Under the pieces are notes generated by a model. That model saw only the letters and a program-made list of their open reading frames with translations. It made no database searches and was not told the DNA's origin. Below are positions 10,232 through 50,765 of a stretch of 64,000 nucleotides of DNA, piece after piece; within the stretch, counting starts at the first letter, position 1, and every line of letters starts with the position of its first letter. Source of the DNA: Candidatus Cloacimonadota bacterium (lineage in GTDB: Bacteria > Cloacimonadota > Cloacimonadia > G963667145); assembly GCA_963667255.1 (NCBI GenBank), contig OY762940.1, positions 73,421-137,420 on the forward strand, in the 5' to 3' direction. A program made the position numbers and the translations under genes.

Positions 10232-10252
10232 AAGACAACTTGCAATCTGCGA

Positions 10253-26709: not shown

Positions 26710-28143
26710 TTACAGTCTAAAAAAATTCTCAATAATTCTACTCGGGGTAATCGCAGGTGTCGCAAATTTCGTAGCCAACTTCTCCGCAGTATCGCCCACA
26801 AGGTGAGCAGCACCCAAACAAGCGGAGTCCAAATCAAGCCCTTGAGCCGCAAACGAAGCTATCGCCCCTGCCAAAACATCGCCACTGCCACCAGTCGCAA
26901 GCCCATCGTTCCCTTTGTTGATAAACCAAATCTTTGCCCCAGAGCAAAACAGAGAAACATGAGATTTCAACAAAACTTTGCACCCGAACTCCGCCACAAA
27001 ATTTTTGAGCAAACCAATTGGATTTTGCAAAACTTCTTGCGAGGTCTTCCCGCACAATCTGGCAAACTCTCCTATGTGCGGCGTGAGAACAGCACCTTTT
27101 ACTTTTTTCAAAAGCTCTCTATTCTCTGCCAAAGTATTCAGTCCGTCAGCATCAATTATCAATTTACCGTCAAAATTGTCCAAAATAAATTCCACAACTT
27201 CCACATTTTGTGTGCCAAGACCGGGACCAATCAAAACAGCATCAGCGGTTTTAGCTCTATCCAAAAAATCAAAATTTCTGGTCATCACCTCGGTCAACGA
27301 CATCTCAAAAATCTCTTCCATACCTTTCGGATGATAGAGCGTAATCAACCCCGCACCACTGTGCAGAGCCGACCGAGAACACAAAACAGCAGCACCACTG
27401 TAACCGGCAGAACCCGCCACAATAGCGAGATTGCCATAAGTTCCCTTGTGAGCCACAGGGCTTCTAACAGGCAAAATTTGCTCATCCAAATATGCGAACT
27501 TATCTGAAGAATCTGACAATTCACTATCGGGAATCCCAATAGGCACAACCATCAACTCTCCGCAAACCTCTTTCCCCCTCCCCAAAAAATGTCCGGGCTT
27601 AGCCGCTGCCATAGTCAAAGTCAAATCGGCATGCACACAGCACTCACTCAATCCGTTATCAGCACCCAGTCCGCTGGGAATGTCGATGGAAACTATTTTG
27701 GCAAAAGAAAAATTGATTAGCTCAACCATCTCTTTCAATTCTCCCTCAAGAGTTCCCCGAAACCCAATCCCCAAAAGAGCATCAACTATCAAATCGAACC
27801 CAATAGAATAGTCGGAATTGTCTAAAATTTTCAAGCCCAACTTTTCGCAGGCTTTGTAATTTTCGGCAGTTTCAGAAGAAAATTTTTGTTTATCCCCAAC
27901 AACCAAAATTGAAACATCGTAACCATATTTGTAGAGCCAACGAGCAACGACAAAGCCGTCTCCACCATTGTTTCCCACACCACACACCACAAGCACGGTA
28001 ACGCCAAATTTTTTCTGATGAATAATATCGGCACATCCTTTGCCGGCATTCTCCATCAAAACTCGAGACGGCAAAAAATACTCGCTCATAGTCAAACTAT
28101 CCAACCGCCTCATCTCGTCTTTGCTTACAATATACATCTGCAA
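26710..28143 (-). CDS. nnr: Bifunctional NAD(P)H-hydrate repair enzyme Nnr (epimerase N-domain plus ADP-dependent dehydratase C-domain)
   Basis: 477 aa. YjeF-N-like N-terminus (VLVVCGVGNNGGDGFVVARWL). Carbohydrate-kinase-like C-terminus (GPGLG, GGSGDVLAG). Confidence 0.85.
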   Translation of the reverse strand: MQMYIVSKDEMRRLDSLTMSEYFLPSRVLMENAGKGCADIIHQKKFGVTVLVVCGVGNNGGDGFVVARWLYKYGYDVSILVVGDKQKFSSETAENYKACEKLGLKILDNSDYSIGFDLIVDALLGIGFRGTLEGELKEMVELINFSFAKIVSIDIPSGLGADNGLSECCVHADLTLTMAAAKPGHFLGRGKEVCGELMVVPIGIPDSELSDSSDKFAYLDEQILPVRSPVAHKGTYGNLAIVAGSAGYSGAAVLCSRSALHSGAGLITLYHPKGMEEIFEMSLTEVMTRNFDFLDRAKTADAVLIGPGLGTQNVEVVEFILDNFDGKLIIDADGLNTLAENRELLKKVKGAVLTPHIGEFARLCGKTSQEVLQNPIGLLKNFVAEFGCKVLLKSHVSLFCSGAKIWFINKGNDGLATGGSGDVLAGAIASFAAQGLDLDSACLGAAHLVGDTAEKLATKFATPAITPSRIIENFFRL

Positions 28144-28146
28144 ACT

Positions 28147-28806
28147 CTACTTTGTTCCAAAAATTTTATCTCCGGCATCGCCCAATCCGGGCAAAATATA
28201 GCCGTTCTCGTTCAATTTTTCGTCCAAAGCGGCAACATAAATCTCAACATCGGGGTGAACTTTTTCCACTTTAGCGACACCTTCTGGAGCTGCCACCAAA
28301 AAAATCCCCTTGATGTGCTTACAACCTGTGGCTTTCAGAGCATCGATAGTGGCTATGAGCGTAGAACCGGTAGCCAACATTGGGTCTAAAATCAACGCAA
28401 CTCTCTCACTCATCGACTTCGCAAATTTCTCAAAATATTTTACGGCTTTCAGAGTTTTCTCATCTCTATAAAAACCGACCACGCTTATCTTGGCAGAAGG
28501 AATAATATCTATCACGCCATCCATCATCCCGATACCAGCACGAAGAATAGGCACAATGGTAATTTTCTTCCCCTTGATTTGTTGCACGGTAGTAGTCCCT
28601 GCCCAAGTTTTGATTACCTTGCTCTCCAACTCCAAATCGGCGGTAGCTTTATATGTAAGAAAGTGAGCTATTTCCGCAGAAAGCTCCCTGAACTCTTTTG
28701 TGGAAATATCTCTGTGCCTCAAAATCCCCAATTTGTGCTTGATAAGCGGATGTGTCTCTATGTGAACTAACATATCTAACCTCCTGTTATTCGTAGTAAT
28801 TGACAA
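28147..28806 (-). CDS. upp: Uracil phosphoribosyltransferase
   Basis: 219 aa. PRTase motif ([12 protein letters not shown]). Typical Upp length. Confidence 0.9.
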
Positions 28807-28816
28807 ATCTTTCTTG

Positions 28817-29806
28817 TCAACTGTTTTTTAATACCCTTACCTCAAACTCTCCGTATCTCTTTTTTAGCTTGTTCAGCAAATAGTTCCCATATCCGTAAAT
28901 ATAAGAAGTTTTGCTTTGCTCTATCTCCAAAACAGACAGTTCGCCCTCGTATTTTTTCAAAACTTCTTCGTAAAATTTTTCTATTTTAACCAGTTCGCCA
29001 AACGACGGATGATAAGGACCGGCAACCACTTGACTTGCATCAAGTCCAACATCGGAATGTAAACCGATTTTGATTACACGGATTTCTCTGGCTTCCAACT
29101 CGGCACACCAGTAGCTGCACAAATCCAATGCAGTTTGCAAATCAGGAGGAGAATATTCCCCCTCGTAATAGTAATCGGCTAATTTCGTCGATGCCAAAAC
29201 AATCGTGGGATAAATCCGCACTTCTTCAGGTTGCAACTCCAAAGTTGTCTGCAAGGTCAAAGCCAAACTCTCGTCACTCCACCCGAGCAAAAACGGCATC
29301 AATTGCACAGTCACTGCAAATCCCGCTTCTTTCAAAATCAGAATGGCTGCGATTGCCTGCTCACGATTATAACCTCTGCAAGAGCTTTTCAGCACCTCAT
29401 CCGAAAAAGATTGGATGCCCAGTTCCACGGTAGCGACGCCATATTTTTTGAATAAATCCAAACTCTCTTGGCTCAAACAATCGGGACGAGTTGACAAGCG
29501 AATAGTATCGCAATCTGCCAATCTTGACCTGGCAATCCTCAAATATTGTTCCTGCTCAGCCAAAGGCAAAGCCGAAAATGTTCCCCCAAAAAAAGCCACC
29601 TCTTTTTGAGAATCTTCGTTATTCAGAACAAAATTCTCAATCAGTTGAGAAATTTGAGAAAAATCCAAAGGCTGATTTTGGGCAGTAATAGTCTGTTGCT
29701 GACAATATATGCAGCGAAACGGACAGCCCGAAAAAGGCAAAAAAATAGGAAGCCTAATAGCTCCCTTTAATTTTCGTCTTCGTTTTTCTTTTTCAGTTTT
29801 CGCCAT
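28817..29806 (-). CDS. Radical SAM domain protein (ELP3/HemN-like family)
   Basis: 329 aa. CxxxCxxC cluster CPFRCIYC near the N-terminus. Its 3' end overlaps the rnc start by 40 nt. Confidence 0.75.
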
Positions 29807-30537
29807 ACATCTTTGGCAGCTTTCTGTTGAGCCGCCTTTTTATTCACTCCGGAACCTTTGCCGATAAATTTATCATCAAAATAGACCTCAACAAAAAATC
29901 GCTTGTTGTGTTCCGGACCTTTTTCGTCCACAACCTTATATTCGGGCAACGCCCTAAACTTCCCTTGATAATACTCTTGAACCAAACTCTTGTAATTTTG
30001 CAAGTAGTCTCTGGTAACCTCTTTCTCAAAATTTTTCAGACATTTCTTGTTAACGAACTTTCTCGCTTCCTCTATTCCACCGTCCAAATAAATCGCACAG
30101 ACCAAAGATTCCACAGCATCGGAGAGGATAGATTCCCTCTCTCTGCCACCACTTTTGCTCTCATCATCAGACAAAAAAAGCGTGTCGCCAAGTTGAAGAC
30201 TCCTAGCAATATGAGCCAAATATTTCTCCGACTCCACTTTGGACTTCAGCTTCGACAAGTATCCCTCTTTCTTGGTTGGGTATTTATTAAATAGACACTC
30301 CGCCACCAAGAAACCCAAAATCGCATCGCCAAAAAACTCCATTCTCTCGAACGAGCCCAACTTGCTATCCGACTTTCGCACATAGGACAAATGCGTCATA
30401 GCCACCTTCAAATAGTTAATATCTTGAAAACAGTATCCTATCTTCTTCTGCAAAATTATCGCTTTTTCACCCCATTCGTCATCCAACTGGGGAAATTTGC
30501 CTTTACCCTTTCCAAAAAAACTGAGATTAAACTTCAC
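29767..30537 (-). CDS. rnc: Ribonuclease III
   Basis: 256 aa. RNase III signature ERMEFFGDAILG. C-terminal dsRBD. Sits downstream of fabF-acpP as in many bacteria. Confidence 0.85.
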   Translation of the reverse strand: MKFNLSFFGKGKGKFPQLDDEWGEKAIILQKKIGYCFQDINYLKVAMTHLSYVRKSDSKLGSFERMEFFGDAILGFLVAECLFNKYPTKKEGYLSKLKSKVESEKYLAHIARSLQLGDTLFLSDDESKSGGRERESILSDAVESLVCAIYLDGGIEEARKFVNKKCLKNFEKEVTRDYLQNYKSLVQEYYQGKFRALPEYKVVDEKGPEHNKRFFVEVYFDDKFIGKGSGVNKKAAQQKAAKDVWRKLKKKNEDEN

Positions 30538-30542
30538 CTATT

Positions 30543-31784
30543 TTAAGCCTTATACCTTTTAAAAATTACAACTCCGTTATGTCCGCCGAAGCCGAGAGAA
30601 TTACTCAAAGCGACATTAATATCCAGCTCTTCCGCACCATTTGCTACATAATCCAAATCACACTCGGGGTCAGGATTTATGATATTAATAGTCGGATGAA
30701 CTTTCCCTGTTTCTATAGACTTGCAACACACTATCGCCTCAATAGCTGCAGCTCCACCCAGCGTGTGTCCAATCATAGATTTAGTGGAATTTATTTTCAA
30801 CTTCTTGGCATGACCACCAAAAACCGTCTTAATAGACTGCGTTTCAGAACTATCATTATACGGAGTGGAAGTTCCGTGAGCACTAATGTATTGCACCTCT
30901 TCCGGTGATACGCCGGCATCAGACAGGGCAGTTTGCATCGCTCTAACTCCACCTTCTCCACCTTCTGCTGGAGCGGTAATGTGATAAGCATCACAAGTTG
31001 CACCATAGCCGATGACTTCAGCATAAATCTTCGCACCTCTAGCCTTGGCGTGTTCCAACTCCTCAAAAACCAAAACACCTGCACCTTCTCCGATGATAAA
31101 TCCGTCCCGCTCTGCATCAAAAGGTCGGCATGCGGTTTTCACATCGTCGTTGCGAGTGGACAGTGCTTTCATCGAGCAAAATCCCGCAACTGACAACGGC
31201 GTAACAGCAGCCTCCGAGCCTCCGGTAACCACGATGTCGGCATCTCCGTATTGCAGAGCACGATAAGCCGAACCAAGAGCATGATTAGCGGATGCACACG
31301 CCGAAGAACAAGTAAAATTCGGACCTTTCAAACCAAATTTAATAGCAACACCGGCAGCCGCAGCATTAATAATCATCTTGGGAATGAACTGCGGAGACAC
31401 TCTTCTCGGCCCTTTCTCCAACAAAACCTTGGTTTCGTTTTCAAAGGTCTCCATTCCGCCGATACCACATCCCATAATGCAACCAGCTCTAAAAGAATCG
31501 AAATTCTCCTCAGCCAAATTGGCATCCTTCATCGCCTCTTCAGCAGCGACAAGCATATAAATGGAATAAGCGTCCAACTTTCTGGCCGACTTTTTATCCA
31601 AAACCTCTGCAGGATCAAAATTCTTAATCTCTCCAGCCATTTGTGCAGCAAAATCTTCAGGATCAAATTTAGTAATTCTATCTATACCATTGGTTCCCTT
31701 GAGCATAGCTTCCCAACTCTCCGAAACACTATGACCGACAGAATTAATCGTACCAAGACCTGTAACAACAACTCTCTTTTTCAT
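30543..31784 (-). CDS. fabF: 3-oxoacyl-ACP synthase II
   Basis: 413 aa. Active-site Cys context (NFTCSSACASANHAL). His-His motifs (HGTSTPYND, GHTLGGAA). Confidence 0.9.
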   Translation of the reverse strand: MKKRVVVTGLGTINSVGHSVSESWEAMLKGTNGIDRITKFDPEDFAAQMAGEIKNFDPAEVLDKKSARKLDAYSIYMLVAAEEAMKDANLAEENFDSFRAGCIMGCGIGGMETFENETKVLLEKGPRRVSPQFIPKMIINAAAAGVAIKFGLKGPNFTCSSACASANHALGSAYRALQYGDADIVVTGGSEAAVTPLSVAGFCSMKALSTRNDDVKTACRPFDAERDGFIIGEGAGVLVFEELEHAKARGAKIYAEVIGYGATCDAYHITAPAEGGEGGVRAMQTALSDAGVSPEEVQYISAHGTSTPYNDSSETQSIKTVFGGHAKKLKINSTKSMIGHTLGGAAAIEAIVCCKSIETGKVHPTINIINPDPECDLDYVANGAEELDINVALSNSLGFGGHNGVVIFKRYKA

Positions 31785-31885
31785 ACCAAATTAATTCTCC
31801 TTATAAAAAAATTACAAAAAAATAGTAGCTACTCCTTTGGTGCGAAAAACCATTTTCATTCCCAAAAAAATAGCTACTTAAAGTT

Positions 31886-32119
31886 TTAACCTAATTTCTC
31901 TTTGAGATATTCGATAGATTCTCCAACAGTTTTAAGCTTACCCGCATCTTCATCAGGAATCTCAATATCAAACTCTTCCTCAAATTTCATAATAAGCTCT
32001 ACTGTGTCGAGAGAATCTGCACCCAAATCGTCAATATAACTGGCAGAAGGGACAACCTCGGCAGCATCCACATCCAACTCATCCACGATAATATCTCTTA
32101 CTTTAGCTTCAATATCCAT
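31886..32119 (-). CDS. acpP: Acyl carrier protein
   Basis: 77 aa. Phosphopantetheine attachment motif DLGADSLD. Confidence 0.9.
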
Positions 32120-32157
32120 TTCCAGTCCTCCTAAATGGTTAACTTCTCTTATTTTTT

Positions 32158-32901
32158 TTATCTCATTACTATCCCACCATCAACATTGATGGTTTGACCA
32201 GTAATATATCTAGCTCTGTCACTCGATAGAAATAAACACAACTCCGCTACATCGTCCACAGACCCCAAGTATCCGAGGGGAATAGCAGACTTATAACCAC
32301 TTACAACCTCTTCCGGCAAACTTTCAGTCATCTCAGTTTGAATAAACCCCGGAGCAACAGCGTTACATCTGATACCACGAGAACATAGTTCCTTTGCCAC
32401 AGATTTACTGAAAGCGATAAGACCGCCTTTGCTTGCAGCATAGTTTGACTGTCCAATATTGCCCATAAGCCCTATCACAGAAGCGATATTAATGATAACG
32501 CCCGACTTCTGCTTCATCATTATTTTGCTGACCTTCTGCGTGCTGACAAAAGCACCCTTTAGGTTCACATCCATCACCATGTCCCAATCAGTCTCCTTCA
32601 TCCGCAACAAAAGAGCGTCTCTAGTAACTCCGGCATTATTTATCAAAATATCAACCGAACCAAACTGCCCCTTGACATCATCAAAAACCTTGCTCATACT
32701 CTCGCCATCGGTAACATCAGCTTTTTTGCCATCAACCGTGCCGAAAGATTTCAAAGAACAAATAGCCTTGTTTACAGCCTCTTCATCCACATCCACTATG
32801 AAAACCTTCGCTCCATTCGTAACAAAGAGTTTCGCTATACCAAGCCCTATCCCTCTGGCTGCACCTGTTATCACCGCTACTTTATCTTTCAACATCATCA
32901 C
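32158..32901 (-). CDS. fabG: 3-oxoacyl-ACP reductase
   Basis: 247 aa [11 protein letters not shown] cofactor motif. NNAG. YxxxK (YAASKGG). Confidence 0.9.
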
Positions 32902-32902
32902 T

Positions 32903-33865
32903 CTATACTTCGTTCAATTTCGCCACAACTTCAGCGACATCTTCCATCTTAGCAACATTCAAAACTCTCGCTTTTTTGTCAGTCTTTTTTATCATTCCGC
33001 TGACGGCTTTGCCCGGACCAAACTCGATGAAAACATCAACACCTTCATCCAACATTTTTTCCACAGAAGATGTCCACAGCACAGCACCATCAACCTGCTT
33101 AATCAAATTATCCTTAATCTCTGCCACATCCGTATGCAACTTCGCATCCACATTACTGACTACTGGACAGACACTGTCATTAAACTCAATTTTGTCCAAC
33201 TCTTTTGCCAAATTTTCCGTTGCAGATCTCATCAAAGGACTATGAAACGCACAACTTACCGCCAAAGGAAGTGCTCTCTTCGCACCCGCAGATTTTGCAA
33301 GTTCAGCCACTTTTTGCATAGCCTCCCTATGACCAGAGACGACAACTTGCACAGGAGAATTAAAATTCGCAACCACCGCAATCTGCCCACCGACGCTTAC
33401 CTCTTCACAAATTTTCTCAACAACGCCTATCTCCAGCCCAATAATCGCACACATACCACCATTGCTACCTTCGCCGGCAGCAGCCATAAATTTGCCTCTC
33501 TTATGCACAAGAGACAATGCGTCTTCGATATTCAAAACACCCGAAGACACCAACGCTGAGAACTCGCCAAGTGAATGCCCTGCAACAAAATTCGGAACAA
33601 TATCCACTTCACGCAAAAGAGCCCTAAGAGCCAAGCAAGAATGGAACAAAACAGTAGGTTGAGTAAATTCCGTATGTGCCAATTTTTCCTCAGGTCCATT
33701 TTGCATAATGTCCAACAAATCGAACCCCACCTCTTGCGAAAAACTATCAGCAACCTTTCTCATTTCGCCATCTAAGGCGATAAAATCCATAGCCATCCCC
33801 ACATACTGAGAACCTTGACCAGGAAAAACAAAAGCTATTTTTTTATTTTTATACATAAAATTCAC
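32903..33865 (-). CDS. fabD: Malonyl-CoA:ACP transacylase
   Basis: 320 aa. Active-site GHSLGE. Conserved position in the fab cluster. Confidence 0.9.
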   Translation of the reverse strand: MNFMYKNKKIAFVFPGQGSQYVGMAMDFIALDGEMRKVADSFSQEVGFDLLDIMQNGPEEKLAHTEFTQPTVLFHSCLALRALLREVDIVPNFVAGHSLGEFSALVSSGVLNIEDALSLVHKRGKFMAAAGEGSNGGMCAIIGLEIGVVEKICEEVSVGGQIAVVANFNSPVQVVVSGHREAMQKVAELAKSAGAKRALPLAVSCAFHSPLMRSATENLAKELDKIEFNDSVCPVVSNVDAKLHTDVAEIKDNLIKQVDGAVLWTSSVEKMLDEGVDVFIEFGPGKAVSGMIKKTDKKARVLNVAKMEDVAEVVAKLNEV

Positions 33866-33913
33866 CCCTCAAAAGAAACATTTCAACATTCCTCACAACG
33901 AGCATTAATATTA

Positions 33914-34963
33914 TCAAGAACATAAAGACCAATATCTTTTAATCCTATTTGAAATCTTGTCGTTTTTTTTGCCACTATACTCAAAGAAATCTCTGCAATA
34001 ACGAACAATTCCCGATTCGGCAGTTTGTGCCGCAAATCTGATACCACCAGCAATCGCATCCTCACTGCTGGAACCATGCCCAACTACGGTAATTCCCTTG
34101 AGACCAAGCAACAAAGCTCCACCGTAAACAGACGGGTCCATCTCCTTTTTGAACAAAGAAAAAACGGAACTCATAAACAAAACACCCACTTTAGCCCACA
34201 AACTCTTTTTGATTCCGCTTTTAAGCTTCTTGAGTATGAACTTGCTCGTTCCCTCGACAGACTTCAAGAAAATATTTCCCGTAAACCCATCACAGACAAT
34301 CACATCCACATCTCCATACACAGCAGACGGTTCCACATTGCCGATGAAATTCACGCTTTTCTCTTTTACCAAACTGTCATGCACCTTGACATAAAGTTGC
34401 GAGCCCTTGGTGTCTTCCTCGCCGATATTCAACAAACCAACCTTGGGACGGTCTATATCGTAATAAAAATGAGAGTACAGACTTCCCATTTGAGCAAATT
34501 GCACCAAAACATCAGCTTTGCAATCAGCGTTTGCACCCACATCCAAAACAATCTTCGGTCTATCCACTCCAGGGAATAGCGTAGCAATAGCGGGACGAGC
34601 AATACCTTTAATCCTACCATAATTAAGCAAGGAAGCCGCCATCACGGCACCAGTATTGCCTGCAGAAAAAACAGCATCTACTTCATTCTGAGTGGACAAC
34701 TCCAAAGCTTTTACCAAGGACGAGTCCTTCTTCTTGCGAACCGCTCTAGCACCTTTGTCTTCCATAGTGATAACCTCGCGGGCATCCACTACTTCTATCT
34801 TACTTTTATCATAAGTGTACTTGCTTAGTTCACTCTCGATTTCCTCTTGCCTGCCCACCAGCACTATCTTTCCGCAAAATCCTCTCTCAAGAGCACGAAC
34901 ACTACCGGCGACCTCACAAGCAGGAGCAAAATCTCCGCCAAAAGCATCTACAGCTATTTTCAT
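33914..34963 (-). CDS. plsX: Phosphate acyltransferase PlsX
   Basis: 349 aa. MKIAVDAFGGD N-terminus typical of PlsX. Adjacent to rpmF. Confidence 0.9.
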   Translation of the reverse strand: MKIAVDAFGGDFAPACEVAGSVRALERGFCGKIVLVGRQEEIESELSKYTYDKSKIEVVDAREVITMEDKGARAVRKKKDSSLVKALELSTQNEVDAVFSAGNTGAVMAASLLNYGRIKGIARPAIATLFPGVDRPKIVLDVGANADCKADVLVQFAQMGSLYSHFYYDIDRPKVGLLNIGEEDTKGSQLYVKVHDSLVKEKSVNFIGNVEPSAVYGDVDVIVCDGFTGNIFLKSVEGTSKFILKKLKSGIKKSLWAKVGVLFMSSVFSLFKKEMDPSVYGGALLLGLKGITVVGHGSSSEDAIAGGIRFAAQTAESGIVRYCRDFFEYSGKKNDKISNRIKRYWSLCS

Positions 34964-34969
34964 AAATTT

Positions 34970-35155
34970 CTATTGTGCGTCAGAAACCTCTACGACCTCT
35001 TTGCCACCATAGTAACCACAACTAGTACAAAGGTGATGAGGTCTTACGGTAGCACCACAATTAGAACATTCAGAAACTCCAGGCAACACAGCCTTAAAAT
35101 GAGTTCTTCTTTTTCTCTTCCTTTGTTTGGAAGTTTTTCTTTTTGGTACAGCCAT
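34970..35155 (-). CDS. rpmF: 50S ribosomal protein L32
   Basis: 61 aa. [18 protein letters not shown]-terminus and Cys-rich zinc ribbon (CSNCG...CTSCG). Confidence 0.85.
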
Positions 35156-35262
35156 TTAAATCTCCTAAAATTTAACATTCTCTAAGTTTGCAAATTTTTC
35201 TCACCCGAATATATGTCAAGTTAAATAGGTGGCAAAAAAGTTAGAAATCCCCTAAAAACTTA

Positions 35263-36546
35263 CTACAATTTATACTCAAATCCCAACGCAAAAATATTGT
35301 TCAACTTGCTATACTTGGTAGAAACAGAGCCACCAATTAAACCAGTTTCATCTTTATAATCATTAAGCATATAGGATATATTCACACCAAATTTTTCTGT
35401 AAACTTGTAGCCACCGCCGCAAGCGTAAGAGTTACAATCTAATGGAGGACTCATTTGCTCTACAAGAGTATAATCATTTGCAGGTAAGCCATTTTCAGTT
35501 CTCATATAGCCGATAGTTCCCCAAATTCTCTCGGAAAAATTGTATTTTGCAGAGAAAGCCAAATCGTAAGAATTATCAGTAACCTTATCTGCAACATTAT
35601 ATTTATTAAGATTGCTATCGTAATTGTCCCAAGTAGCATTTTTGTCGAAATAGTAAGTAAGAGAAGTAGCAAAACTCAATTTATCGTTCACCTCATAATT
35701 TGCACCAAATCCAAGAAGTGCAGGCAAATCACGACGATTTTTGTCACCATCTTTTTTGCCTTGACTAGACAAAACACTTTTGCCAAGAGTATTCGATTTA
35801 TCGTCCAATTCGAAATCAAGATTTACTTGACTCTCATAACGAAGAGCAAATCGCAATGGTTTGAAAGGAACATAATCAACACTGGCAACTCCACCAAAAC
35901 CACTGGCAGTTTCTCCATAATCTAAAGAAACAGCACCAGCAGCAGAAGTCATACTTGCTTCTACACTCTTATCTGCATAAACATATCTCGCACCCAAAGC
36001 CACGGAAACTTGGTCAGTTACTTGATAAGCACCACCAGTAGTGAAAGTATAATAAACACTATTAGCTTTTACTTTATCATCACTAAAATTAACACTGAGT
36101 GTCCCGCCATTAAGTTTTGTAGCTAAACTTGTTCCTAAAGCAAAAGTTGTAGCATTACCATCTTTGTAATCTACCGTTCCACCGCCACCATTCGTAGTGA
36201 AGCAGCCAAAAAATCCCCAATCGTTCTTCTTATAAGTTGCAAAAGCGTTAGGAATTGTCGAAGGAGTATTTTGCTCCTTTGTGACCTCTTTGCCAACTCT
36301 CGCGTCTGTGTAGGTATGCTCATAAGTTTTTAAAATATATTGGCAATCAACACTAAAATCCCAGCCTTCATAACCAAACATAATTCCAGCGGGGTTAAAT
36401 GCCGCAATATCCGGTGCATCCACGGCTGCGTTTCTGGTCGGCTCCCCTATATAGCGTGAACCAAGATTTTGCTTATTATCGATACCTCCGGCAACCAATT
36501 GCCCCACTACCATCGTTCCCAAAACCAACATTAATATTCTTTTCAT
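35263..36546 (-). CDS. Outer-membrane beta-barrel protein, possibly a FadL/TodX-like transport family member
   Basis: 427 aa. Signal peptide. Alternating beta-strand pattern. C-terminal FEYKL. Family assignment is tentative. Confidence 0.45.
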   Translation of the reverse strand: MKRILMLVLGTMVVGQLVAGGIDNKQNLGSRYIGEPTRNAAVDAPDIAAFNPAGIMFGYEGWDFSVDCQYILKTYEHTYTDARVGKEVTKEQNTPSTIPNAFATYKKNDWGFFGCFTTNGGGGTVDYKDGNATTFALGTSLATKLNGGTLSVNFSDDKVKANSVYYTFTTGGAYQVTDQVSVALGARYVYADKSVEASMTSAAGAVSLDYGETASGFGGVASVDYVPFKPLRFALRYESQVNLDFELDDKSNTLGKSVLSSQGKKDGDKNRRDLPALLGFGANYEVNDKLSFATSLTYYFDKNATWDNYDSNLNKYNVADKVTDNSYDLAFSAKYNFSERIWGTIGYMRTENGLPANDYTLVEQMSPPLDCNSYACGGGYKFTEKFGVNISYMLNDYKDETGLIGGSVSTKYSKLNNIFALGFEYKL

Positions 36547-36845
36547 TTTTTCTCCTCTTAATTTCGTCGAACCAATTTCAACTAATTATTTCGAAGTCAG
36601 ACTTTTTTTTCGGAAACAAATGTCAAAACCAAAGAGATTAAAAAACGAAAACAAACCTATGGGTAGGTTTTAGATTATATTTGAGAGAGATACAACTATT
36701 CCAAAGTTAGCTATTTGTTTAATTTTTAATAAATTAGCCTTTGAACACTTGACCAAAAAAAAGCTCTCCCACCCTATTTCGAGTGAAAGAGCTAATATAA
36801 AATTTCCAGTTTAGCTTGAGAGCTAACTATCCATTTGTAAGAACG

Positions 36846-37181
36846 CTAAAGCGTAAATTGGTGCAATCCAACTTGATTGAATTGAACAATGTTTTCCTCA
36901 ACCGACCCAATTACGCCTTTGTAAACCTTGATTTTTGCCTCGTTAAATTTCTTCAATGCACCTTTGCTAATCCCACCAACCACTACGGCATCAATTTTGT
37001 TTTCCACAAACGAAGCCATCGGATCGTATCCGTCATGGTCGGAATTTATATGTTTGTTCTCCACAGTTATAAAACCTTTTGTGCTATCATCATAGACCAC
37101 AAAAAAAGGTGCAGCGACACAACTGTCCAGCACCTTACTTTTTTCAGCGTTACCGCCGTCTACAGGGAAACAAATTTTCAT
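36846..37181 (-). CDS. Dinitrogenase FeMo-cofactor-binding domain protein (NifX/NifB C-terminal-like)
   Basis: 111 aa. MKICFPVDGG...VVVGGISKGALKKF pattern typical of the NifX/NafY-like small proteins. Confidence 0.6.
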   Translation of the reverse strand: MKICFPVDGGNAEKSKVLDSCVAAPFFVVYDDSTKGFITVENKHINSDHDGYDPMASFVENKIDAVVVGGISKGALKKFNEAKIKVYKGVIGSVEENIVQFNQVGLHQFTL

Positions 37182-37367
37182 CGCAATATCCTCCTTGGAA
37201 TTTAATCGGAATCAGATTAATAAACAAAATTTAGTAGCTCCAAAAATAAAGTCAAGAAAAAAGGTTTGCACTTTAAAACTATCCGCTAAATATTGAAAGT
37301 CAACAGATGGCAAAACAATTTTTGGAAATTATCAGACAATTAATTAACCTCGGAATAAGGAGAAAAA

Positions 37368-37697
37368 ATGAAATGGATTTTACTGTCTATCGGAATAGTC
37401 GCAGAACTTCTGGGCTCAACTTGCATGAAAATGTCGCTCGGTTTCACAAAATTATCCCCCTCAATATTCACATTCGTTTTTTGGGCAATTGGTCTTACAG
37501 TTTTTTTGTTCGCATTGAAACAGTTTGACCTGAGTTTTGCCTATGCTATATGGGCAGGTTTGGGAATCTTGGGTGTATCCTTGATAGGAATTTTCGTCTT
37601 CAAAGAACCATGCAACACTCTGAAAATAGTCTCAATCCTATTAATCGTAATCGGAGTGATTACCCTAAACATCAGCGATATTTTGATGAGAAAATAG
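37368..37697 (+). CDS. Small multidrug resistance (SMR/EmrE/SugE-family) efflux protein
   Basis: 109 aa with four TM helices. SMR signature around the conserved Glu in TM1 (ELLGSTCMK). Its 3' 162 bp is duplicated at 41199..41360. Confidence 0.8.
   Translation: MKWILLSIGIVAELLGSTCMKMSLGFTKLSPSIFTFVFWAIGLTVFLFALKQFDLSFAYAIWAGLGILGVSLIGIFVFKEPCNTLKIVSILLIVIGVITLNISDILMRK
37536..37697. repeat. Direct repeat copy 1 (3' 162 bp of the SMR gene, including the stop)
   Basis: Near-identical (3 substitutions) to 41199..41360. Confidence 0.85.
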
Positions 37698-37703
37698 TTT
37701 TCT

Positions 37704-38837
37704 TTACTTTTTCAAACCGTGTCCGGTAAAAACTGAAACAATGGTCTCGTCGCCTCTATCGCCATCTTCCAAATATTTCTCCACTCCGGCATATGCTGCC
37801 ACTGCGGTCGGTTCTACATAAATCCCCATTTTTTTTACTCGTCCCCATACATCTGCCAAAAGCCGCTCAGAAACAGTTACGAAACATCCTCCACTATCTT
37901 TAACAGCTTGCAAAATTTGCTGACATCTGATGGGCTTACTTATTGCTATTCCCTCTGCCAGAGTATCACTAACTTTGGCAACCAATAAATTCCCTTCTCC
38001 ATTTCCAAAGCTCTTAGCCAAGGGTGCACAATTCTCTGCCTGCACTCCTACAATCTTTGGTAATTTGCTGATAACTCCACCAGCCAACAACTGCTGAAAT
38101 CCCAAATAAGCACCCAAAAGCAGTGTGCCATTACCAACAGGTAAAACCACTGTATCAGGAGCAACCCAACCCAATTGCTCACTAACCTCAAAAGCAAAAG
38201 TCTTAGTCCCTTCAAAAAAATAAGGATTGTAGCTATGGCTCGCATAATAGCTATCATGAGCCAACTCCAGTGCCTTATCAGCAACATCTTGCCGACTTCC
38301 CTCTATAGCCAATAACTCGGCTCCCACTTGAGAAATCTGTTTTAGTTTGCTAAGAGAATTAGATGCTGGAACTAAAATCTTGCTTTTTATTCCAGCTTTT
38401 GCACAATAAGCGGCTATCGCAGCTCCAGCATTACCGGAAGAATCCTCAATCACTTGCTTGATTCCCAACTCTTTTATCTTGCTAACCAAAACTGTCGCTC
38501 CTCTGTCTTTGTAAGAGCCACTGGGAAAAATATGGTCGAATTTGAATAGAATATCTTTGCCTTTCACACAAATTTTTTGCAAAGATGTAAATCCCTCGCC
38601 AAAGCTAACTCTATTTTCAAAAGACACTGGTAATACATGATGATACCGCCACAAGCTGTTCTCATTTTTATCAACTTTCCCCACATCAAAAACAATATCA
38701 CTTACACAATCCAACAATCCACCACATTCACAACACCATACGGATTGAGTTTCCTCATATCTTCTGCCACATTCATTACAAATCAAATGTCCCAATTGCC
38801 TACCTCCTTCACTACTTTTTGAGCAAGAATAACGCAT
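37704..38837 (-). CDS. Threonine-synthase-like PLP-dependent enzyme with N-terminal zinc ribbon
   Basis: 377 aa. N-terminal CNECG...CCECGG zinc ribbon. PLP-lysine motif FPSGSYKDRGATV. Fold-type II PLP enzyme. Confidence 0.7.
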   Translation of the reverse strand: MRYSCSKSSEGGRQLGHLICNECGRRYEETQSVWCCECGGLLDCVSDIVFDVGKVDKNENSLWRYHHVLPVSFENRVSFGEGFTSLQKICVKGKDILFKFDHIFPSGSYKDRGATVLVSKIKELGIKQVIEDSSGNAGAAIAAYCAKAGIKSKILVPASNSLSKLKQISQVGAELLAIEGSRQDVADKALELAHDSYYASHSYNPYFFEGTKTFAFEVSEQLGWVAPDTVVLPVGNGTLLLGAYLGFQQLLAGGVISKLPKIVGVQAENCAPLAKSFGNGEGNLLVAKVSDTLAEGIAISKPIRCQQILQAVKDSGGCFVTVSERLLADVWGRVKKMGIYVEPTAVAAYAGVEKYLEDGDRGDETIVSVFTGHGLKK

Positions 38838-39514
38838 GGGTCTAACAAACTCACATCAAAATCTTTCTGTTGCATCGCCAAAGGAATCTCTGTACACCCC
38901 ATGATAATAGCTTCAGCACCTTTTTCAATCAAATCATGAGCAACACTATCCAGTCTATCTTTTGCCCAAGAAAAATCGCCACCGCTTTTTATTCCCTTTT
39001 CTCCATCATAAATAGCAGAGCTAACCAGATTTTTACCAAAATCATCAGGCAAAAGCAACTCTCCACAATCAAGCTGCGAAAAATAGTCCGCATAAACTCC
39101 ACTGCCATAAGTTCCATGAGTTGACAACAATCCTACTTTTCGCAAATTAAGATTTTTAATCTCCAAGCAAGTTTGCTCAACAAGATTCAAAAATGTTACA
39201 TCTTTATCCTGCAAAAAATCCAAAACAGGCGATAAAATAGGAGCAGAGTGGGCAGTATTGCAAGGAATGGTTAAAATCTTCGCTCCTATTTGCAATAACT
39301 TCTCCATAACATAAATAATCCCGTAGGCAGGATTCGGCAAATTCCTGTCTTGCAGATACGCACTGCGATCCCCAATCTTTTCCGAAGCAGAAATATGATA
39401 TATCTCCAAATGCTCTTGGTCTGTGCCAGCCTTAGTAGCTTCTATAATTTTTCGGTGAAAATCAACTCCGGCTAATGGACCTACACCACCAACTATCCCA
39501 ATAATTTTGCCCAT
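38783..39514 (-). CDS. Aspartate/glutamate racemase family protein
   Basis: 243 aa. N-terminal IGIVGGVGPLAG and a second catalytic-Cys region (IMGCTEIPL), typical of Asp/Glu/hydantoin racemases. Confidence 0.75.
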   Translation of the reverse strand: MGKIIGIVGGVGPLAGVDFHRKIIEATKAGTDQEHLEIYHISASEKIGDRSAYLQDRNLPNPAYGIIYVMEKLLQIGAKILTIPCNTAHSAPILSPVLDFLQDKDVTFLNLVEQTCLEIKNLNLRKVGLLSTHGTYGSGVYADYFSQLDCGELLLPDDFGKNLVSSAIYDGEKGIKSGGDFSWAKDRLDSVAHDLIEKGAEAIIMGCTEIPLAMQQKDFDVSLLDPCVILAQKVVKEVGNWDI

Positions 39515-39592
39515 AGATTCTCCTTACAAATACTATATATAAAGAGTGCCGCTCTCGGTATTCCAAAAACGACACTCAAAATTTGATTTTTT

Positions 39593-40876
39593 CTATTTCC
39601 ACTTATCCATATCAAGCAAGCCTTCACTTTTGGCAATAACAGTTGAGCAAGTCATATCTCCAGTTACATTGATACAAGTACGACCCATATCCAAAATAGC
39701 ATCAATACCCAAAATCATAGCGTAAGCAGCAGCCACAGGCGAACCAGCCTCAAGAGGCATGCCAATAGATTCCAAAACAAGCATAAGCATAATAGCACCT
39801 GCTCCGGGAACTCCTGCTGTTCCTATAGATGCCAAAACTGCCGTAACGATTACTGTGATTTGAGCACCCAAACTCAAAGGGAGCCCAACAGCAAAACCGA
39901 TAAACATCGCACAAACACCTTGATAAATTGCCGTTCCATCCATGTTAATGGTAGCACCGAGTGGCAAAGAGAACGAATAAACATCTTTGTGAATGCCCAG
40001 TTCTTCCTCAGCAGTTTTCATAGAAACAGGCAAAGTGCCACTACTGCTACGAGTAACAAAAGCAGTAATCATTGGAGCTTTTATTTTCCCCAATAATTTA
40101 ATCGGTTGTAGACCGGCAAATTTTGCAATAAGAGTATAGACTATAACTACTTGCAAAATATAGCCAATAAACGCAGCCAAAGTTACAGTTCCCAAAGGAC
40201 CAACAGCTTTCAGACCTTGTTTGCCGAAAACAACAGCAATAAGAGCAAAAACTCCGATAGGTGCGTATTGCATAACCCAACGAACTATGAGATACATAAC
40301 CTCAGCAGCAGCATCAAAAACATTGAACAAAGTCTCTCCGGCTTTTTTAATCCGCTCGTCTTTACTAATCTTGAGGTATGACAAAGCTATACCGAAAATG
40401 ATAGCAAAAAAGATTGAAGGCAAAATTTTGCCCGAAACAATACAATCAAGTGGATTTTGGGGAATAATATTCAAGAAAGTATCAGCTAAACTCGGAGCGT
40501 TAGCAACTTTGCCGGCAGCTCCACCGATATTACCAAGATTAAGCCCCAATCCGGGTTTAAAAAGATTCCCCATTACAAGTCCAACAGCTACGGCAAAAGC
40601 ACTGGTTATCAGATAAAAAACCACAGCCTTAATTCCGATTTTGCCCAATTTGGCAGGACTAATACTAGCTGCCCCAACTACCAAAGTGCTCAAAACAACA
40701 GGCATAACTATCATCTTGAGAAGTCTCACAAAAATATCTCCAAGTGGTTTTAACCAAGAGATACTCTCACCACCTGCGAGACCGACAATGGCACCTAGAA
40801 TAAGCCCCAATAAAATTCTTACCAGCAAATTTGATTTAAAATACCAATCAAACATACCACTTTTTGATTCAGACAT
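39593..40876 (-). CDS. Dicarboxylate/amino acid:cation symporter (DAACS family, GltP/SstT-like)
   Basis: 427 aa. Polytopic. Conserved DAACS motifs (SSSGTLPV, AxxNMDGTA). Confidence 0.85.
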   Translation of the reverse strand: MSESKSGMFDWYFKSNLLVRILLGLILGAIVGLAGGESISWLKPLGDIFVRLLKMIVMPVVLSTLVVGAASISPAKLGKIGIKAVVFYLITSAFAVAVGLVMGNLFKPGLGLNLGNIGGAAGKVANAPSLADTFLNIIPQNPLDCIVSGKILPSIFFAIIFGIALSYLKISKDERIKKAGETLFNVFDAAAEVMYLIVRWVMQYAPIGVFALIAVVFGKQGLKAVGPLGTVTLAAFIGYILQVVIVYTLIAKFAGLQPIKLLGKIKAPMITAFVTRSSSGTLPVSMKTAEEELGIHKDVYSFSLPLGATINMDGTAIYQGVCAMFIGFAVGLPLSLGAQITVIVTAVLASIGTAGVPGAGAIMLMLVLESIGMPLEAGSPVAAAYAMILGIDAILDMGRTCINVTGDMTCSTVIAKSEGLLDMDKWK

Positions 40877-41138
40877 TTTAAATTCCTCCTTACTTTTTCA
40901 TTGTCTCGAAATAACAAATCAAAATTTTTATTGTCAAGTGAAAAGAAGACTAAAATAGCTTTCTATTCTCTATTGACCATATTTTGAGAAAAGTAAAAAA
41001 AATCATAAAATTTATGCTTTTGCCACTGGTAAATCCTGCGGGTTACATTCAATTGAATAATTTAAAAGATATTCCCGAAAAATGAGAAGCTACAAATCAC
41101 CAAAGAAATGGAAAGGTTTGTCAACGAAGTCGGCTTAG

Positions 41139-41360
41139 TTGACAAAGTCAGAAAAACTAATTCACTTTGCGATACCACTCGTCCAAAAAAGATTGAACTT
41201 TGCCTATGCTATATGGGCAGGTTTGGGAATCTTGGGTGTATCTTTGATAGGAATTTTCGTCTTCAAAGAACCATGCAACACTCTAAAAATAGTCTCAATC
41301 CTATTAATCGTAATCGGAGTGATTACCCTAAACATCAGCGATATTTTGATGAGAAAATAA
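41139..41360 (+). pseudogene. SMR gene 3' fragment (C-terminal 52 codons) fused to 21 unrelated codons. This is direct repeat copy 2.
   Basis: The ORF-track 73-aa product ends ...FAYAIWAGLGILGVSLIGIFVFKEPCNTLKIVSILLIVIGVITLNISDILMRK, identical to the C-terminus of the 37368..37697 product. The nucleotide repeat spans 41199..41360. Confidence 0.8.
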
Positions 41361-41365
41361 TGAAA

Positions 41366-41400
41366 AAGAGAGACCGAAAATTAGTCTCTCTTAGAATGTT
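41366..41400. terminator. Bidirectional rho-independent terminator (SMR fragment / trpB)
   Basis: AAGAGAGACCGAAAATTAGTCTCTCTTAGAATGTTTT. An 8-bp perfect stem with a T-rich tail. Confidence 0.6.
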
Positions 41401-41416
41401 TTACTCAATTCTCTTT

Positions 41417-42628
41417 TTAAATAATTCCAAACTCTTTCCCGTAAGTTTTCACGACATAGTCGATATCTTTGTCGCCTCTACCGGATAAATTCACCAAAAT
41501 CGTTTGATCTTTGGGCAAAGTCGGAGCAAGTTTGAGAGCATAAGAAATGGCATGCGAAGATTCCAAAGCAGGAATAATCCCCTCTTCTCTGGAAATTTCA
41601 AAAAAAGCACTTATGGCTTCTTTATCGTTCACACTCACATAATTCACTTTGTTCAAGTCTTTTAAAAGACAATGTTCAGGTCCGACTCCCGGGTAATCCA
41701 AACCACTGGCAACAGAGTGCACTGGCAAAGGATTCCCTTCTTCATCTTGGAGCAAATAACACTTAAAGACGTGAATCATTCCCTTGCTGCCCTTGGTCAT
41801 AGTTGCCGCATGTTCTCCATCTTTGAAGGAAATTCCGGCAGGTTCTACTCCGTAAAGTTTAACCTTTTCTTCGTCCAAAAAAGCAGAAAAAATTCCCATG
41901 GCATTACTGCCTCCGCCCACACAAGCTATCACATTGTCAGGCAACGAATTGGTCATCTCTCTAAATTGCTCTTTGGCTTCCCTGCCGACAATGGACTGAA
42001 AATCTCGCACCATCATCGGAAAAGGATGAGGTCCAACTACCGAGCCGATAGCATAAAGTTGATTTATCGGGTCTTTTAGATAAGCCTGAAAAGCCACATC
42101 AACCGCTTCTTTCAAAGATTTTCCACCAACACTCACAGGAATGACATTCGCTCCCAAAATCTTCATTCTAATCACATTCGGATGCTCTTTTTCAATGTCA
42201 ATTTCGCCCATATAAATATCGCATTCCATCCCAAACAAAGCTGCCACAGTTGCCAAAGCAACTCCGTGTTGACCTGCTCCGGTTTCGGCAATTACCTTCT
42301 TCTTGCCCATTTTTTTTGCCAAAAGCACTTCGCCCAAGCAATGATTGATTTTGTGAGCACCAGTGTGGTTCAAATCTTCCCTTTTGAAATAAATTTGAGC
42401 ACCTTGCAATTTTTCGCTCAAAGATTTGGCAAAATAAACAGGGCTTGGTCTTCCCGTGTAATGCTTGTTCAAGTCGCTCAACTCTTGCAAAAAGGACTCG
42501 TCTTGTCTGATTTTCAAATATGCTTCTTCTATTTCTTTCAGCACTTTTTCCAGCTCGGGTGGCACGAAAACTCCGCCAAATTCTCCAAAATATCCATCTT
42601 GCGGTTGTGAATTTATATTATATTTCAT
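41417..42628 (-). CDS. trpB: Tryptophan synthase beta chain (TrpB1-type), with no adjacent trpA
   Basis: 403 aa. PLP-lysine motif [22 protein letters not shown]. Full-length TrpB. Confidence 0.9.
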
Positions 42629-42871
42629 AATCTACTCCTATGATTAAAGTTATGTTTTTTGTTTTGAAAATATTATTTTTTGGAAAAGATAAACTTTACA
42701 TTTCCAAATTTTTTAAAATACTATGATATTTTTAAGGGGGTTTTGAGTTTGTATATTTTTTAGACAGGCCAATGCCAAAGACAAGTTTGCCAAAGAGATT
42801 TTGCTTTTAAATTTGGATTTAACGATAAAATTAATTGTTTTTTCATAAGTCAATTCTCCTTTGCATTCTAT

Positions 42872-43444
42872 TTGCCCCGAGAAACGAAACTCAACTCTGA
42901 TGTCAAGCAAAAAATAGTCTCCCAGCGAAAACCAAAAGTAAACTTGACAAAAAGTAACTACTACAAATCAAATTATACAAAAATTTTCGAGGTCAAAATG
43001 ATATTCGACAAAATTGAAAACTACCAACTTTACGCTAATCTTAACGAAAAAATAAGCAAAGCGTTCGACTTCCTCGTGGATAACGACTTGAACAAAATGG
43101 AATTGGGGAAGCACACCATTGACGGCGAAGAGATTTTTGCCCTCTTGCAAGAATACGAAACCAAGAATTTGGACGACGGAAAGTTGGAAAAGCATTTCCA
43201 ATACTTCGACCTGCAATATATGGTAAAAGGCACAGAACTAATCGGCATTGCCTCATTTGCAAATCAAAAGTTGCTGGAAGAGAACCGAAACGAAGATTAC
43301 GGCTTTTATGTCGGAGATAGCTCACTAATCAAAATCGAAGAAGGACAATTTTTCATCTTCTTCCCCGATGACCTGCATATGCCATGCATCAAGTTTGAAC
43401 AGACTGCAAAAGTCAGGAAAGTGGTTGTTAAAATTAAATTATAA
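42872..43444 (+). CDS. YhcH/YjgK/YiaL-family protein (DUF386, TabA-like)
   Basis: 190 aa. Conserved C-terminal FFIFFPDDLHMP motif of this family. Confidence 0.65.
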   Translation: MPRETKLNSDVKQKIVSQRKPKVNLTKSNYYKSNYTKIFEVKMIFDKIENYQLYANLNEKISKAFDFLVDNDLNKMELGKHTIDGEEIFALLQEYETKNLDDGKLEKHFQYFDLQYMVKGTELIGIASFANQKLLEENRNEDYGFYVGDSSLIKIEEGQFFIFFPDDLHMPCIKFEQTAKVRKVVVKIKL

Positions 43445-49536: not shown

Positions 49537-49591
49537 CTATTGAATTATCAATTAACTAAGAGGTTTTTTATTGCAAATAAAAAAGCTCTTA

Positions 49592-49712
<121 letters not shown>

Positions 49713-49877
49713 AAGAGCTTTAAACAAATCGTTATGATAAAAAAGTTGGTGAGATATTAAAAAGAAAAAAATAAGCCAATGGAACAATTAGTATCACTCG
49801 GCTGAGAGCATTACTACTCTTACACCTGTGACCTATCAACGTTGTAGTCTCCAACGGTTCTCATAGGGAAATCTATT

Positions 49878-49919
<42 letters not shown>

Positions 49920-50036
49920 TTCCAAACTTAGCTACTCGGCAATGCAGCTGACGCCACAACCGATACACCAGAGGTTTGTTCACACCGGTCCTCTCGTACT
50001 AGATGCAAATCCTCTCAAATTTCCTACTCCCACGAA

Positions 50037-50083
<47 letters not shown>

Positions 50084-50106
50084 ACTCTTTAATTGGCGAA
50101 CAGCCA

Positions 50107-50137
<31 letters not shown>

Positions 50138-50193
50138 AGTTGAGCCGACATCGAGGTGCCAAACACCGCCGTCGATATGAACTCTTAGGCGGT

Positions 50194-50226
<33 letters not shown>

Positions 50227-50384
50227 TTTGAGCAACGGCCCTTCCATACAGAGCCGCCGGATCACTAAGACCTGCTTTCGCATCTGCTCGACCCGTCAGT
50301 CTCGCAGTTAAGCTCCCTTATACCTTTATGCTCTTCGATTGATTGCCGACCAATCTGAGGGAACCTTTGTAAGCCTCCGTTACT

Positions 50385-50417
<33 letters not shown>

Positions 50418-50668
50418 ACCAGACAATGTCTGCTAGTAGGGTAACTACTAGCGTTAGTGATTCAACAACATAAGGGTGGTATTTCAAGGTTGACTCCACG
50501 GCGACTAGCGTCACCGCTTCAAAATCTCCCACCTATCCTACACATACCTCATCAAATCACAATGTCAAGCTATAGTAAAGGTTCACGGGGTCTTTCCGTC
50601 CGTTCGCGGGTAGGCGGCATCTTCACCGCCACTACAATTTCACCGAGATCCTGGTTGAGACAGTATTC

Positions 50669-50765
<97 letters not shown>

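Follow-up and report, generated by a model that had tools for sequence, protein, structure and literature searches.

Direct repeats around an amino acid operon in Candidatus Cloacimonadota: a probable scar of local illegitimate recombination at a rearrangement hotspot

The DNA analysed here is a stretch of 64,000 nt (the window) from a Candidatus Cloacimonadota bacterium (assembly GCA_963667255.1, contig OY762940.1, positions 73,421 to 137,420 of the forward strand). It contains an SMR efflux gene whose last 162 bp occur a second time downstream. Between the two copies a minus-strand operon encodes a symporter, a racemase and a ThrC-like pyridoxal phosphate (PLP) enzyme, and the tryptophan synthase gene trpB lies beyond copy 2 (Table 1). 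The gene content between the repeats had been proposed in an initial annotation of the window and was borne out by Pfam. The same annotation took the three genes for recently acquired accessory DNA. We come to a different view, in which the 162-bp repeat is probably the scar of a local illegitimate recombination at a rearrangement hotspot and not the footprint of a new cassette.

A repeat search and pairwise alignment confirmed the predicted 162-nt direct repeat with its three substitutions. The copies are 98.8% identical and start 3663 nt apart. Two of the mismatches (37580 C / 41243 T and 37622 G / 41285 A) are synonymous and the third (37697 G / 41360 A) falls on the last base of the stop codon (TAG in copy 1, TAA in copy 2); both copies encode identical amino acids. 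Since the window contains no other direct repeat of at least 60 nt, a chance origin of the pair is not an issue. The intact SMR gene covers profile positions 1-93 of 93 of PF00893 and is thus a full-length family member, while the open reading frame (ORF) on copy 2 matches only positions 54-93 and is a fragment.

Table 1. Features of the repeat-bracketed locus and of further regions of the window mentioned in the text
Feature	Position	Strand	Remarks
SMR efflux gene, intact	37368..37697	+	PF00893 E = 6.6e-22, 109 aa, stop TAG
Repeat copy 1	37536..37697	+	SMR codons 57-109 and stop TAG; runs directly into the operon, 6 nt from the PLP gene stop
ThrC-like PLP enzyme	37704..38795	-	PF00291 E = 3.4e-65; N-terminal Cys4 (CxxC...CxxC) zinc-ribbon motif
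Asp/Glu-family amino-acid racemase	38783..39514	-	PF01177
SDF/DAACS symporter (GltP/DctA-like)	39593..40876	-	PF00375 E = 5.9e-125; first gene of the operon
Operon leader and promoter region	40877..40944	-	contains CTTGACAAT (minus-strand reading); last L002-collinear stretch, BLAST collinearity stops at 40944
Short spacer, operon promoter to PhzF remnant	40945..40987		without significant similarity to L002, L073, L072, L075
PhzF-family isomerase pseudogene remnant	40988..41198 (start approximate)	+	leader and codons 1 to ~77, frameshifted
Junction microhomology TTTGC	41199..41203	+	common to PhzF (GTTGACTTTTGC, then GG) and SMR (GAGTTTTGC, then CTATGC)
Repeat copy 2	41199..41360	+	SMR fragment truncated at its 5' end (codons 57-109), ends in TAA; adjoins the hairpin, as does SMR in L073
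Intrinsic terminator hairpin	41366..41392	-	T-tract on minus strand; terminator scan and folding
trpB (tryptophan synthase beta subunit)	41417..42628	-	stand-alone; TIGR00263 554 bits, cut-off 392
PhzF site of relatives (plus 33-aa ORF), empty here	42866..42997		132 nt without significant homology, ends at YhcH start codon
5S rRNA	49593-49709	-	explains part of high L073 identity
23S rRNA	49767 to beyond 53000	-	explains part of high L073 identity

Both inner junctions of this structure, PhzF to SMR and SMR-TAG to operon, are real sequence and not a product of the assembler. They are spanned by an independent Logan unitig (L001, run SRR34447573), which is 100% identical to 37667-41228 and ends exactly 30 nt (k-1 bases) inside the two repeat copies, which is where it should break if the reads contain both contexts. 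The adjacency of trpB and the YhcH gene on the right-hand side was reproduced in Logan contigs from two runs. An assembly artefact behind the repeat structure is therefore unlikely. The source genome is a metagenome-assembled genome (MAG), the sample contains several Cloacimonadota, and a de Bruijn graph cannot distinguish integration from a free circle beside an empty site, the Logan unitig graph being compatible with both states; all of this could favour a wrongly joined repeat or a chimera between two strains that occur together. Given the single unitig with both novel joints, the position of its ends and the adjacency seen again in two read sets, we consider either of these extremely improbable.

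The best genome match to the window was another Candidatus Cloacimonadota MAG (L002, OY762943.1), and other relatives (L073, L072, L074/L075, L069 and L071) were obtained through protein-cluster look-ups and context retrieval. Window positions 27375-40944 are collinear with L002 at 80.5% identity and trpB is at 82.6%; on the amino acid level the SMR protein is 90% and the symporter 94% identical to its L002 counterpart. L073 is ~97% identical to L002 and thus belongs to the same species. In the orientation of the window the gene order of L073 is FadL, NifX, SMR, hairpin, trpB, a 235-aa ORF, PhzF and YhcH. SMR, hairpin and trpB are contiguous in this genome, which consequently provides the 'empty' SMR-terminator-trpB junction that the initial annotation had named as informative. 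Copy 2, hairpin and trpB of the window (41198-42865) are collinear with positions 9792-11437 of the reverse complement of L073 at 82.3%.

L002 equals L073 plus a clean 3394-bp segment, which sits after the TA of the SMR stop and directly before AAGAGAGACC, the first arm of the hairpin. The operon in L002 starts at the same left junction as in the window, between TA and G of the stop codon, and is present without a second SMR copy. TAG pairs with the operon junction (window copy 1 and L002) and TAA with the hairpin junction (window copy 2 and L073). The right ends of the inserts differ between the window and L002. For the 140 nt to the right of the operon promoter in L002, no relation to PhzF, SMR or the window spacer was detected on either strand, and a decayed PhzF-SMR fragment was rejected as an explanation of these nucleotides. 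Scans with SMR covered 42 metagenome loci and 25 genome loci, of which only L002 shares any neighbouring gene with the window; all others are SMR genes of unrelated organisms.

The relatives also bear on the age of the operon. L072 and L074/L075 are more distant, with ~72% nucleotide identity in the operon and 4-fold sites near saturation. In L072 and L075 the three operon genes lie on the same side of NifX-FadL and in the same orientation, 7-12 kb away, and the intervening DNA consists of other genes in both, plus insertion sequence (IS) elements in L075. Between the window and L002, identity at 4-fold sites is 0.46 for the PLP enzyme gene, 0.51 for the racemase and 0.59 for the symporter gene, compared to 0.46 for FadL, 0.67 for NifX, 0.49 for SMR, 0.59 for TrpB and 0.36 for YhcH; operon and flanks are equally diverged. 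GC content and GC skew gave no island signature. No integrase or transposase was found among the genes listed or scanned in the window and in the L002 and L073 flanks, and attC sites, terminal inverted repeats and inverted repeats at the boundaries are absent. An integron cassette and a hairpin-targeting or IS200/IS605-like element were discarded as candidates for the same reasons, since there is no recombinase gene, the ends are not conserved and a stop codon is 6 nt away from the left end.

As judged from these sequences, the operon is old and native: it has diverged together with its flanks and occupies the same side of NifX-FadL in four lineages. The claim of a recent acquisition could consequently not be upheld, as L002, ~80% identical to the window, has the operon at the same left junction without any repeat, and as 4-fold divergence, GC content, the conserved neighbourhood in L072 and L075 and the lack of mobile-element genes all speak against it. 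The unit that is conserved begins ~20 nt before the -35 box and ends a few bases beyond the PLP stop; it is pared down to a minimal functional operon. In L072 a TetR-family gene lies directly upstream of the operon. The L074/L075 locus (ERZ25042269 ctg13201c) has 3 or 4 IS copies (HTH_28 / rve-type transposase) beside NifX-FadL, interspersed with the operon, RsgA, an agmatine deiminase cluster and AsnC, which shows ongoing reshuffling of this neighbourhood in the L074/L075 lineage.

The right end of the insert in the window is formed by a fragment of a chromosomal neighbour gene. Positions 41023-41184 align with the PhzF gene of L002 at 75.5% identity in blastn, a score that was reached by 0 of 500 shuffles. 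The remnant has lost its start codon and has acquired at least five indels; in tblastn, PhzF residues 8-36 and 36-59 fall in different frames. Its differences from the L002 gene are distributed over the three codon positions as 18/71, 9/72 and 28/71, and due to this coding-type pattern the fragment must have been a working gene for most of its divergence. An intact PhzF gene (TIGR00654) is found on the far side of trpB in both L002 and L073.

At the joint, the PhzF 5' fragment (leader and codons 1 to ~77) is fused head-to-tail to SMR codon 57 with a microhomology of 5-6 nt, (T)TTTGC, and the window reads GATTGAACTTTGCCTATGC at this position. Two unrelated genes thus share a few bases at the crossover without filler; an apparent 14-bp filler before copy 2 is PhzF sequence in the alignment. 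We firmly conclude that the joint between PhzF and SMR is the result of an illegitimate, microhomology-mediated event. The novel codons that had been described as fused to the second SMR fragment are indeed fused to it, in an ORF of 73 aa (41139-41360), but they are not novel: the 20 non-SMR codons are read from the PhzF pseudogene remnant, out of the PhzF frame. The best promoter-like match of the 6-kb region (40984-41011, plus strand; TTGAGA, 16-nt spacer, TAAAAT; 10/12, a consensus match only) sits in the PhzF-remnant leader and is directed into the PhzF-SMR fragment and the 73-aa ORF. Look-ups of the exact SMR, TrpB and 126-aa junction ORF proteins returned no record. An independent 5'-truncated SMR (residues ~36-109, no in-frame ATG) occurs in another uncultured bacterium in two datasets (L017 203-427, L055 7007-7231).

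PhzF is deleted from its usual place beyond trpB in the window, and the event was therefore a complex local rearrangement. We also considered positions 40945-40996 and 42866-42997 as remnants of either the 235-aa ORF of L073 or the 3' part of PhzF, an origin that would have pointed to a single cut-and-paste event. This was rejected, since 20-37% of shuffles match the local alignment scores. One 12-mer of the L002 and L073 PhzF leader, ACAAATCAAATT, recurs at 42963-42974, 24 nt upstream of the YhcH start, and is not significant alone. It suggests that a deletion from ribosome-binding site to ribosome-binding site removed PhzF and placed YhcH under the PhzF leader. The 235-aa ORF of L073 (reverse complement 11577-12284), situated between trpB and PhzF, encodes a membrane protein with no Pfam hit and is missing in L002. 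Its insertion point coincides with the PhzF ribosome-binding site and start codon (shared ATGAAA), and it constitutes a second indel difference at the hotspot.

The hairpin beyond copy 2 had been assigned to the SMR gene and placed at 41366-41400. Its position had to be corrected to 41366-41392, and its ownership as well. A consensus scan scores 41392-41366 as a terminator on the minus strand only, with the tail TTTCATTATT, and the L073 counterpart folds at -18.8 kcal/mol with a U-tract in trpB sense compared to only -7.7 kcal/mol in SMR sense. The hairpin is thus primarily the trpB terminator, although it may stop SMR transcripts too in a bidirectional manner. As copy 1 is not followed by a terminator, SMR transcription probably runs antisense into the PLP gene. 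A further terminator-like hairpin with a 15-bp stem and a T-rich tail (39577-39544, minus strand) is located between the symporter and racemase genes and may act as internal attenuator or partial terminator of the operon.

Taken together, the window arrangement joins two arms of different type. The operon-bearing arm comprises SMR, the ThrC-like gene, racemase, symporter and the PhzF 5' part, with the junction between SMR and operon as in L002. The empty-type arm consists of the SMR 3' end, the trpB terminator and trpB, with the junction as in L073. Since copy 2 ends exactly at the stop codon and matches L073, its junction to the hairpin firmly dates from a time when the SMR gene was whole. 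The junction of copy 1 to the operon is common to L002 and is, equally firmly, either older than the split of the lineages or inherited across it. As the simplest course, we propose that two allelic arrangements of the hotspot would have met in one cell, possibly by uptake of DNA from a conspecific strain, and would have recombined, with homologous exchange at one end and the microhomology joint at the other. The process could have been homology-facilitated illegitimate recombination or the Campbell integration of a circularised fragment, which would give the same product. If one parent carried PhzF beside the operon and the other had no PhzF, a single event would yield the window order, and would also account for the missing 3' part of PhzF. 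Either arm could have been the newcomer, in the single-event version the trpB arm just as well.

Apart from the stop codon change, copy 2 has two substitutions and no indels, although ~4 indels would be expected in 162 nt if it had decayed neutrally at the same pace as the adjoining PhzF remnant. We infer from the intact copy 2 beside a decayed PhzF that either the intact SMR gene has converted the copy, or the event took place recently, with a PhzF that had already decayed.

Several points weigh against a history of local illegitimate recombination. A parent arrangement with the operon directly beside PhzF and no trpB between them was not observed. The species of the window is represented by one genome, from which order and number of events have to be deduced. 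An empty-type allele is needed in the lineage of the window, yet the outgroups suggest that the operon is ancestral, which would require an early deletion or a presence/absence polymorphism that persisted for long. Gene conversion is deduced solely from the contrast between copy 2 and the PhzF remnant. The 140 nt from promoter to hairpin in L002 have no detectable relative and leave the origin of the L002 right junction unexplained.

Other histories would also create the repeat. A joint between the 5' part of a downstream gene and the 3' part of an upstream gene at microhomology is the classic junction of a tandem duplication, which in this case would have extended from SMR codon 57 to PhzF codon 77 and been followed by deletion of the copy-1 trpB, the copy-2 operon and the downstream PhzF. 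The other indel differences at the locus, the L073 235-aa ORF and the PhzF deletion in the window, would fit such a course. However, three further deletions are required, one of which must hit the stop of a non-functional SMR fragment exactly and recreate the L073-type junction without selection, and the 1.9-kb direct repeats of the intermediate would collapse readily by homologous recombination. With no second trpB or operon copy in the window, where only 162 bp instead of two complete copies are doubled, we regard this course as unlikely. Unlikely as well is an ancient repeat structure that arose before the split of L002 and L073 and was homogenised by gene conversion, L073 having originated by inter-repeat recombination and L002 having lost the PhzF-SMR fragment. 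Inter-repeat recombination does regenerate the exact L073 junction, the far better preservation of copy 2 compared to the PhzF remnant suggests conversion, and an operon that is ancestral by outgroups should make the empty site derived. Nevertheless, L002 retains no trace of PhzF or SMR in its 140 nt at that position, the right end of its insert exactly at the hairpin would be a coincidence under secondary loss, and a PhzF remnant that is still coding-type (differences at 9/72 second positions) is not expected from neutral evolution throughout the divergence unless it was also converted.

It is very doubtful, but worth considering, that the repeats are a maintained, gene-converted recombination switch, by which the operon leaves as a 3.66-kb circle, restores SMR and re-enters SMR strains via the 162 bp. 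If true, the locus would be a recombinase-free mobile cassette, and this could explain its presence or absence between sister strains. In a weaker variant, the two-helix truncated SMR ORF (41139-41360) might be expressed from the PhzF leader and have a function of its own. The initial annotation had read the locus as the signature of a single crossover or a cassette capture, that is, a foreign circular molecule with the three genes was recently integrated in the SMR 3' region and the operon is new accessory DNA. The topology, which a single crossover or an insertion with one-ended homology in the SMR 3' region would produce, and the empty site hold: the insert is flanked by direct repeats of the SMR 3' end that are 98.8% identical, L073 has the empty site, and of the two sister strains L002 carries the operon and L073 lacks it. 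The recent and foreign part of this model is largely refuted by the identical left junction in the ~20% diverged L002, the synonymous divergence shared by operon and flanks, the unremarkable GC content, the matching neighbourhood and orientation of the operon in L072 and L075, the fragment of the neighbouring PhzF gene at the right end and the lack of integrase or other mobile-element genes, so that the model as a whole is very improbable.

The function of the operon is assignable only at the family level, and a role in catabolism, as previously suggested, would be a deduction from these families. For the PLP gene a longer ORF reaches ATG 38837, but the start is most likely TTG 38795, giving 363 aa, because the 14 extra codons contain an in-frame stop in L002 and because the product recorded for this genome has 363 aa. 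The enzyme scores 291.1 bits with PRK06450 (NCBIfam threonine synthase, cut-off 301) and 152 bits with TIGR00260 (threonine synthase, cut-off 167). Threonine synthases are its nearest solved structures, and it shares 52-57% identity with annotated threonine synthases from many phyla. To share an operon with a racemase and a symporter is atypical for a threonine synthase. The symporter matches the GltP and DctA models below their equivalog cut-offs. The racemase exceeds the cut-off of the amino-acid racemase family TIGR00035 (155 bits, cut-off 93), and its nearest solved structure is the Pyrococcus aspartate racemase 1jfl. Its top NCBIfam match is CuyB (NF052483) with 157.9 bits, which resembles the CuyB/CuyA cysteate pathway of Bilophila (PMC11193023). 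In contrast to that pathway, the racemase stays under the CuyB cut-off of 190, its partner is a relative of threonine synthase and not a CuyA-type sulfo-lyase, and genes for the handling of sulfite were not found near the operon. Therefore, CuyB-type cysteate metabolism was rejected as the operon function.

Some observations concern other parts of the locus and of the window. Over ~500 nt of the FadL/Toluene_X gene (L002 ~8330-8830), L002 and L073 are 50-83% identical, compared to 97-100% elsewhere; the homologue of this variable gene in the window is 35263-36546. The segment is hypervariable and probably surface-exposed or recombined. In L069 and L071, trpB and ~200 nt upstream form a stand-alone unit with no adjacent trpA and ~80% nucleotide identity to window 41410-42850. 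These genomes (TrpB >90% aa identity) are uninformative for the SMR locus, as only trpB is shared and its context is PgpA-trpB-CvpA-MazG-HisH-HisF. An identity to L073 of 98.5% at 49567-51441, against ~80% elsewhere, is explained by 5S and 23S rRNA. SMR proteins of 61-83% identity occur with unrelated neighbours (L003-L018, L027-L059) in MAGs labelled Clostridia, Pyrinomonadaceae, Spirochaetota, Syntrophales and Lentisphaeria, and also in Methanosarcinales, Methanomicrobiaceae and Methanobacterium MAGs. The more distant L072 and L074 are without SMR at the locus. SMR itself looks horizontally mobile, including across domains.

Whatever its origin, the repeat pair has consequences for the stability of the locus. 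RecA-mediated recombination between direct copies excises the intervening DNA as a circle, and unequal exchange amplifies it. Here, recombination between the copies would release a circle of 3663 bp and regenerate an intact SMR-TAA-terminator site, SMR being restored because both copies encode identical amino acids; unequal exchange could amplify the operon instead. The repeats therefore predict strain-level heterogeneity through excision or amplification of the operon, which could confuse MAG assembly and pangenome calls. The three closely related genomes, one with the operon, one empty and one a hybrid that bears the gene-fragment scar, provide a nucleotide-resolved picture of gene-order evolution at a hotspot in an uncultured phylum. 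They also advise caution, since repeat-bracketed genes and an empty site in a relative do not alone prove a recent horizontal acquisition: the bracketed genes are as old as their neighbours. The event is of a known kind and belongs to ordinary genome microevolution, and no new molecular mechanism is implied.

Among known systems, Campbell-type integration likewise leaves an insert bracketed by a direct duplication of the homology segment, here the 162-bp SMR 3' end, with a single-copy empty site in a relative (L073), and recombination between the copies would restore the intact gene and release a circle. It differs from our case, in which a circular or foreign donor is without evidence, the operon is native and old, one end of the insert is joined through microhomology to part of a gene from the chromosomal neighbourhood, and the sister lineage has the operon without a duplication. 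Homology-facilitated illegitimate recombination is known from natural transformation in Acinetobacter, Pseudomonas stutzeri and Streptococcus pneumoniae. The term is used in this form in the literature (PMC6382021, PMC8116780). The window resembles this process by ordinary homology on one side (SMR and upstream, or YhcH and downstream), by the short joint at TTTGC on the other side and by the loss of recipient DNA beside the joint (PhzF 3' part). Donor and recipient alleles were not observed in our case, and a duplication at the anchor end is less typical than a deletion.

Junctions of microhomology tandem duplications show the same head-to-tail joint of a downstream 5' and an upstream 3' part at 5-6 nt, but one trpB and one operon are present here and just the 162-bp end is doubled. 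The locus also resembles chromosomal hotspots with variable segments: L002 and L073, at ~97% identity, differ by the 3.4-kb operon between conserved flanks, further indel differences lie nearby, and in more distant relatives this place is taken by other genes and IS elements. Compared to such hotspots, the variable unit here is trimmed to one promoter and three genes, to which the window adds the gene-fragment scar.

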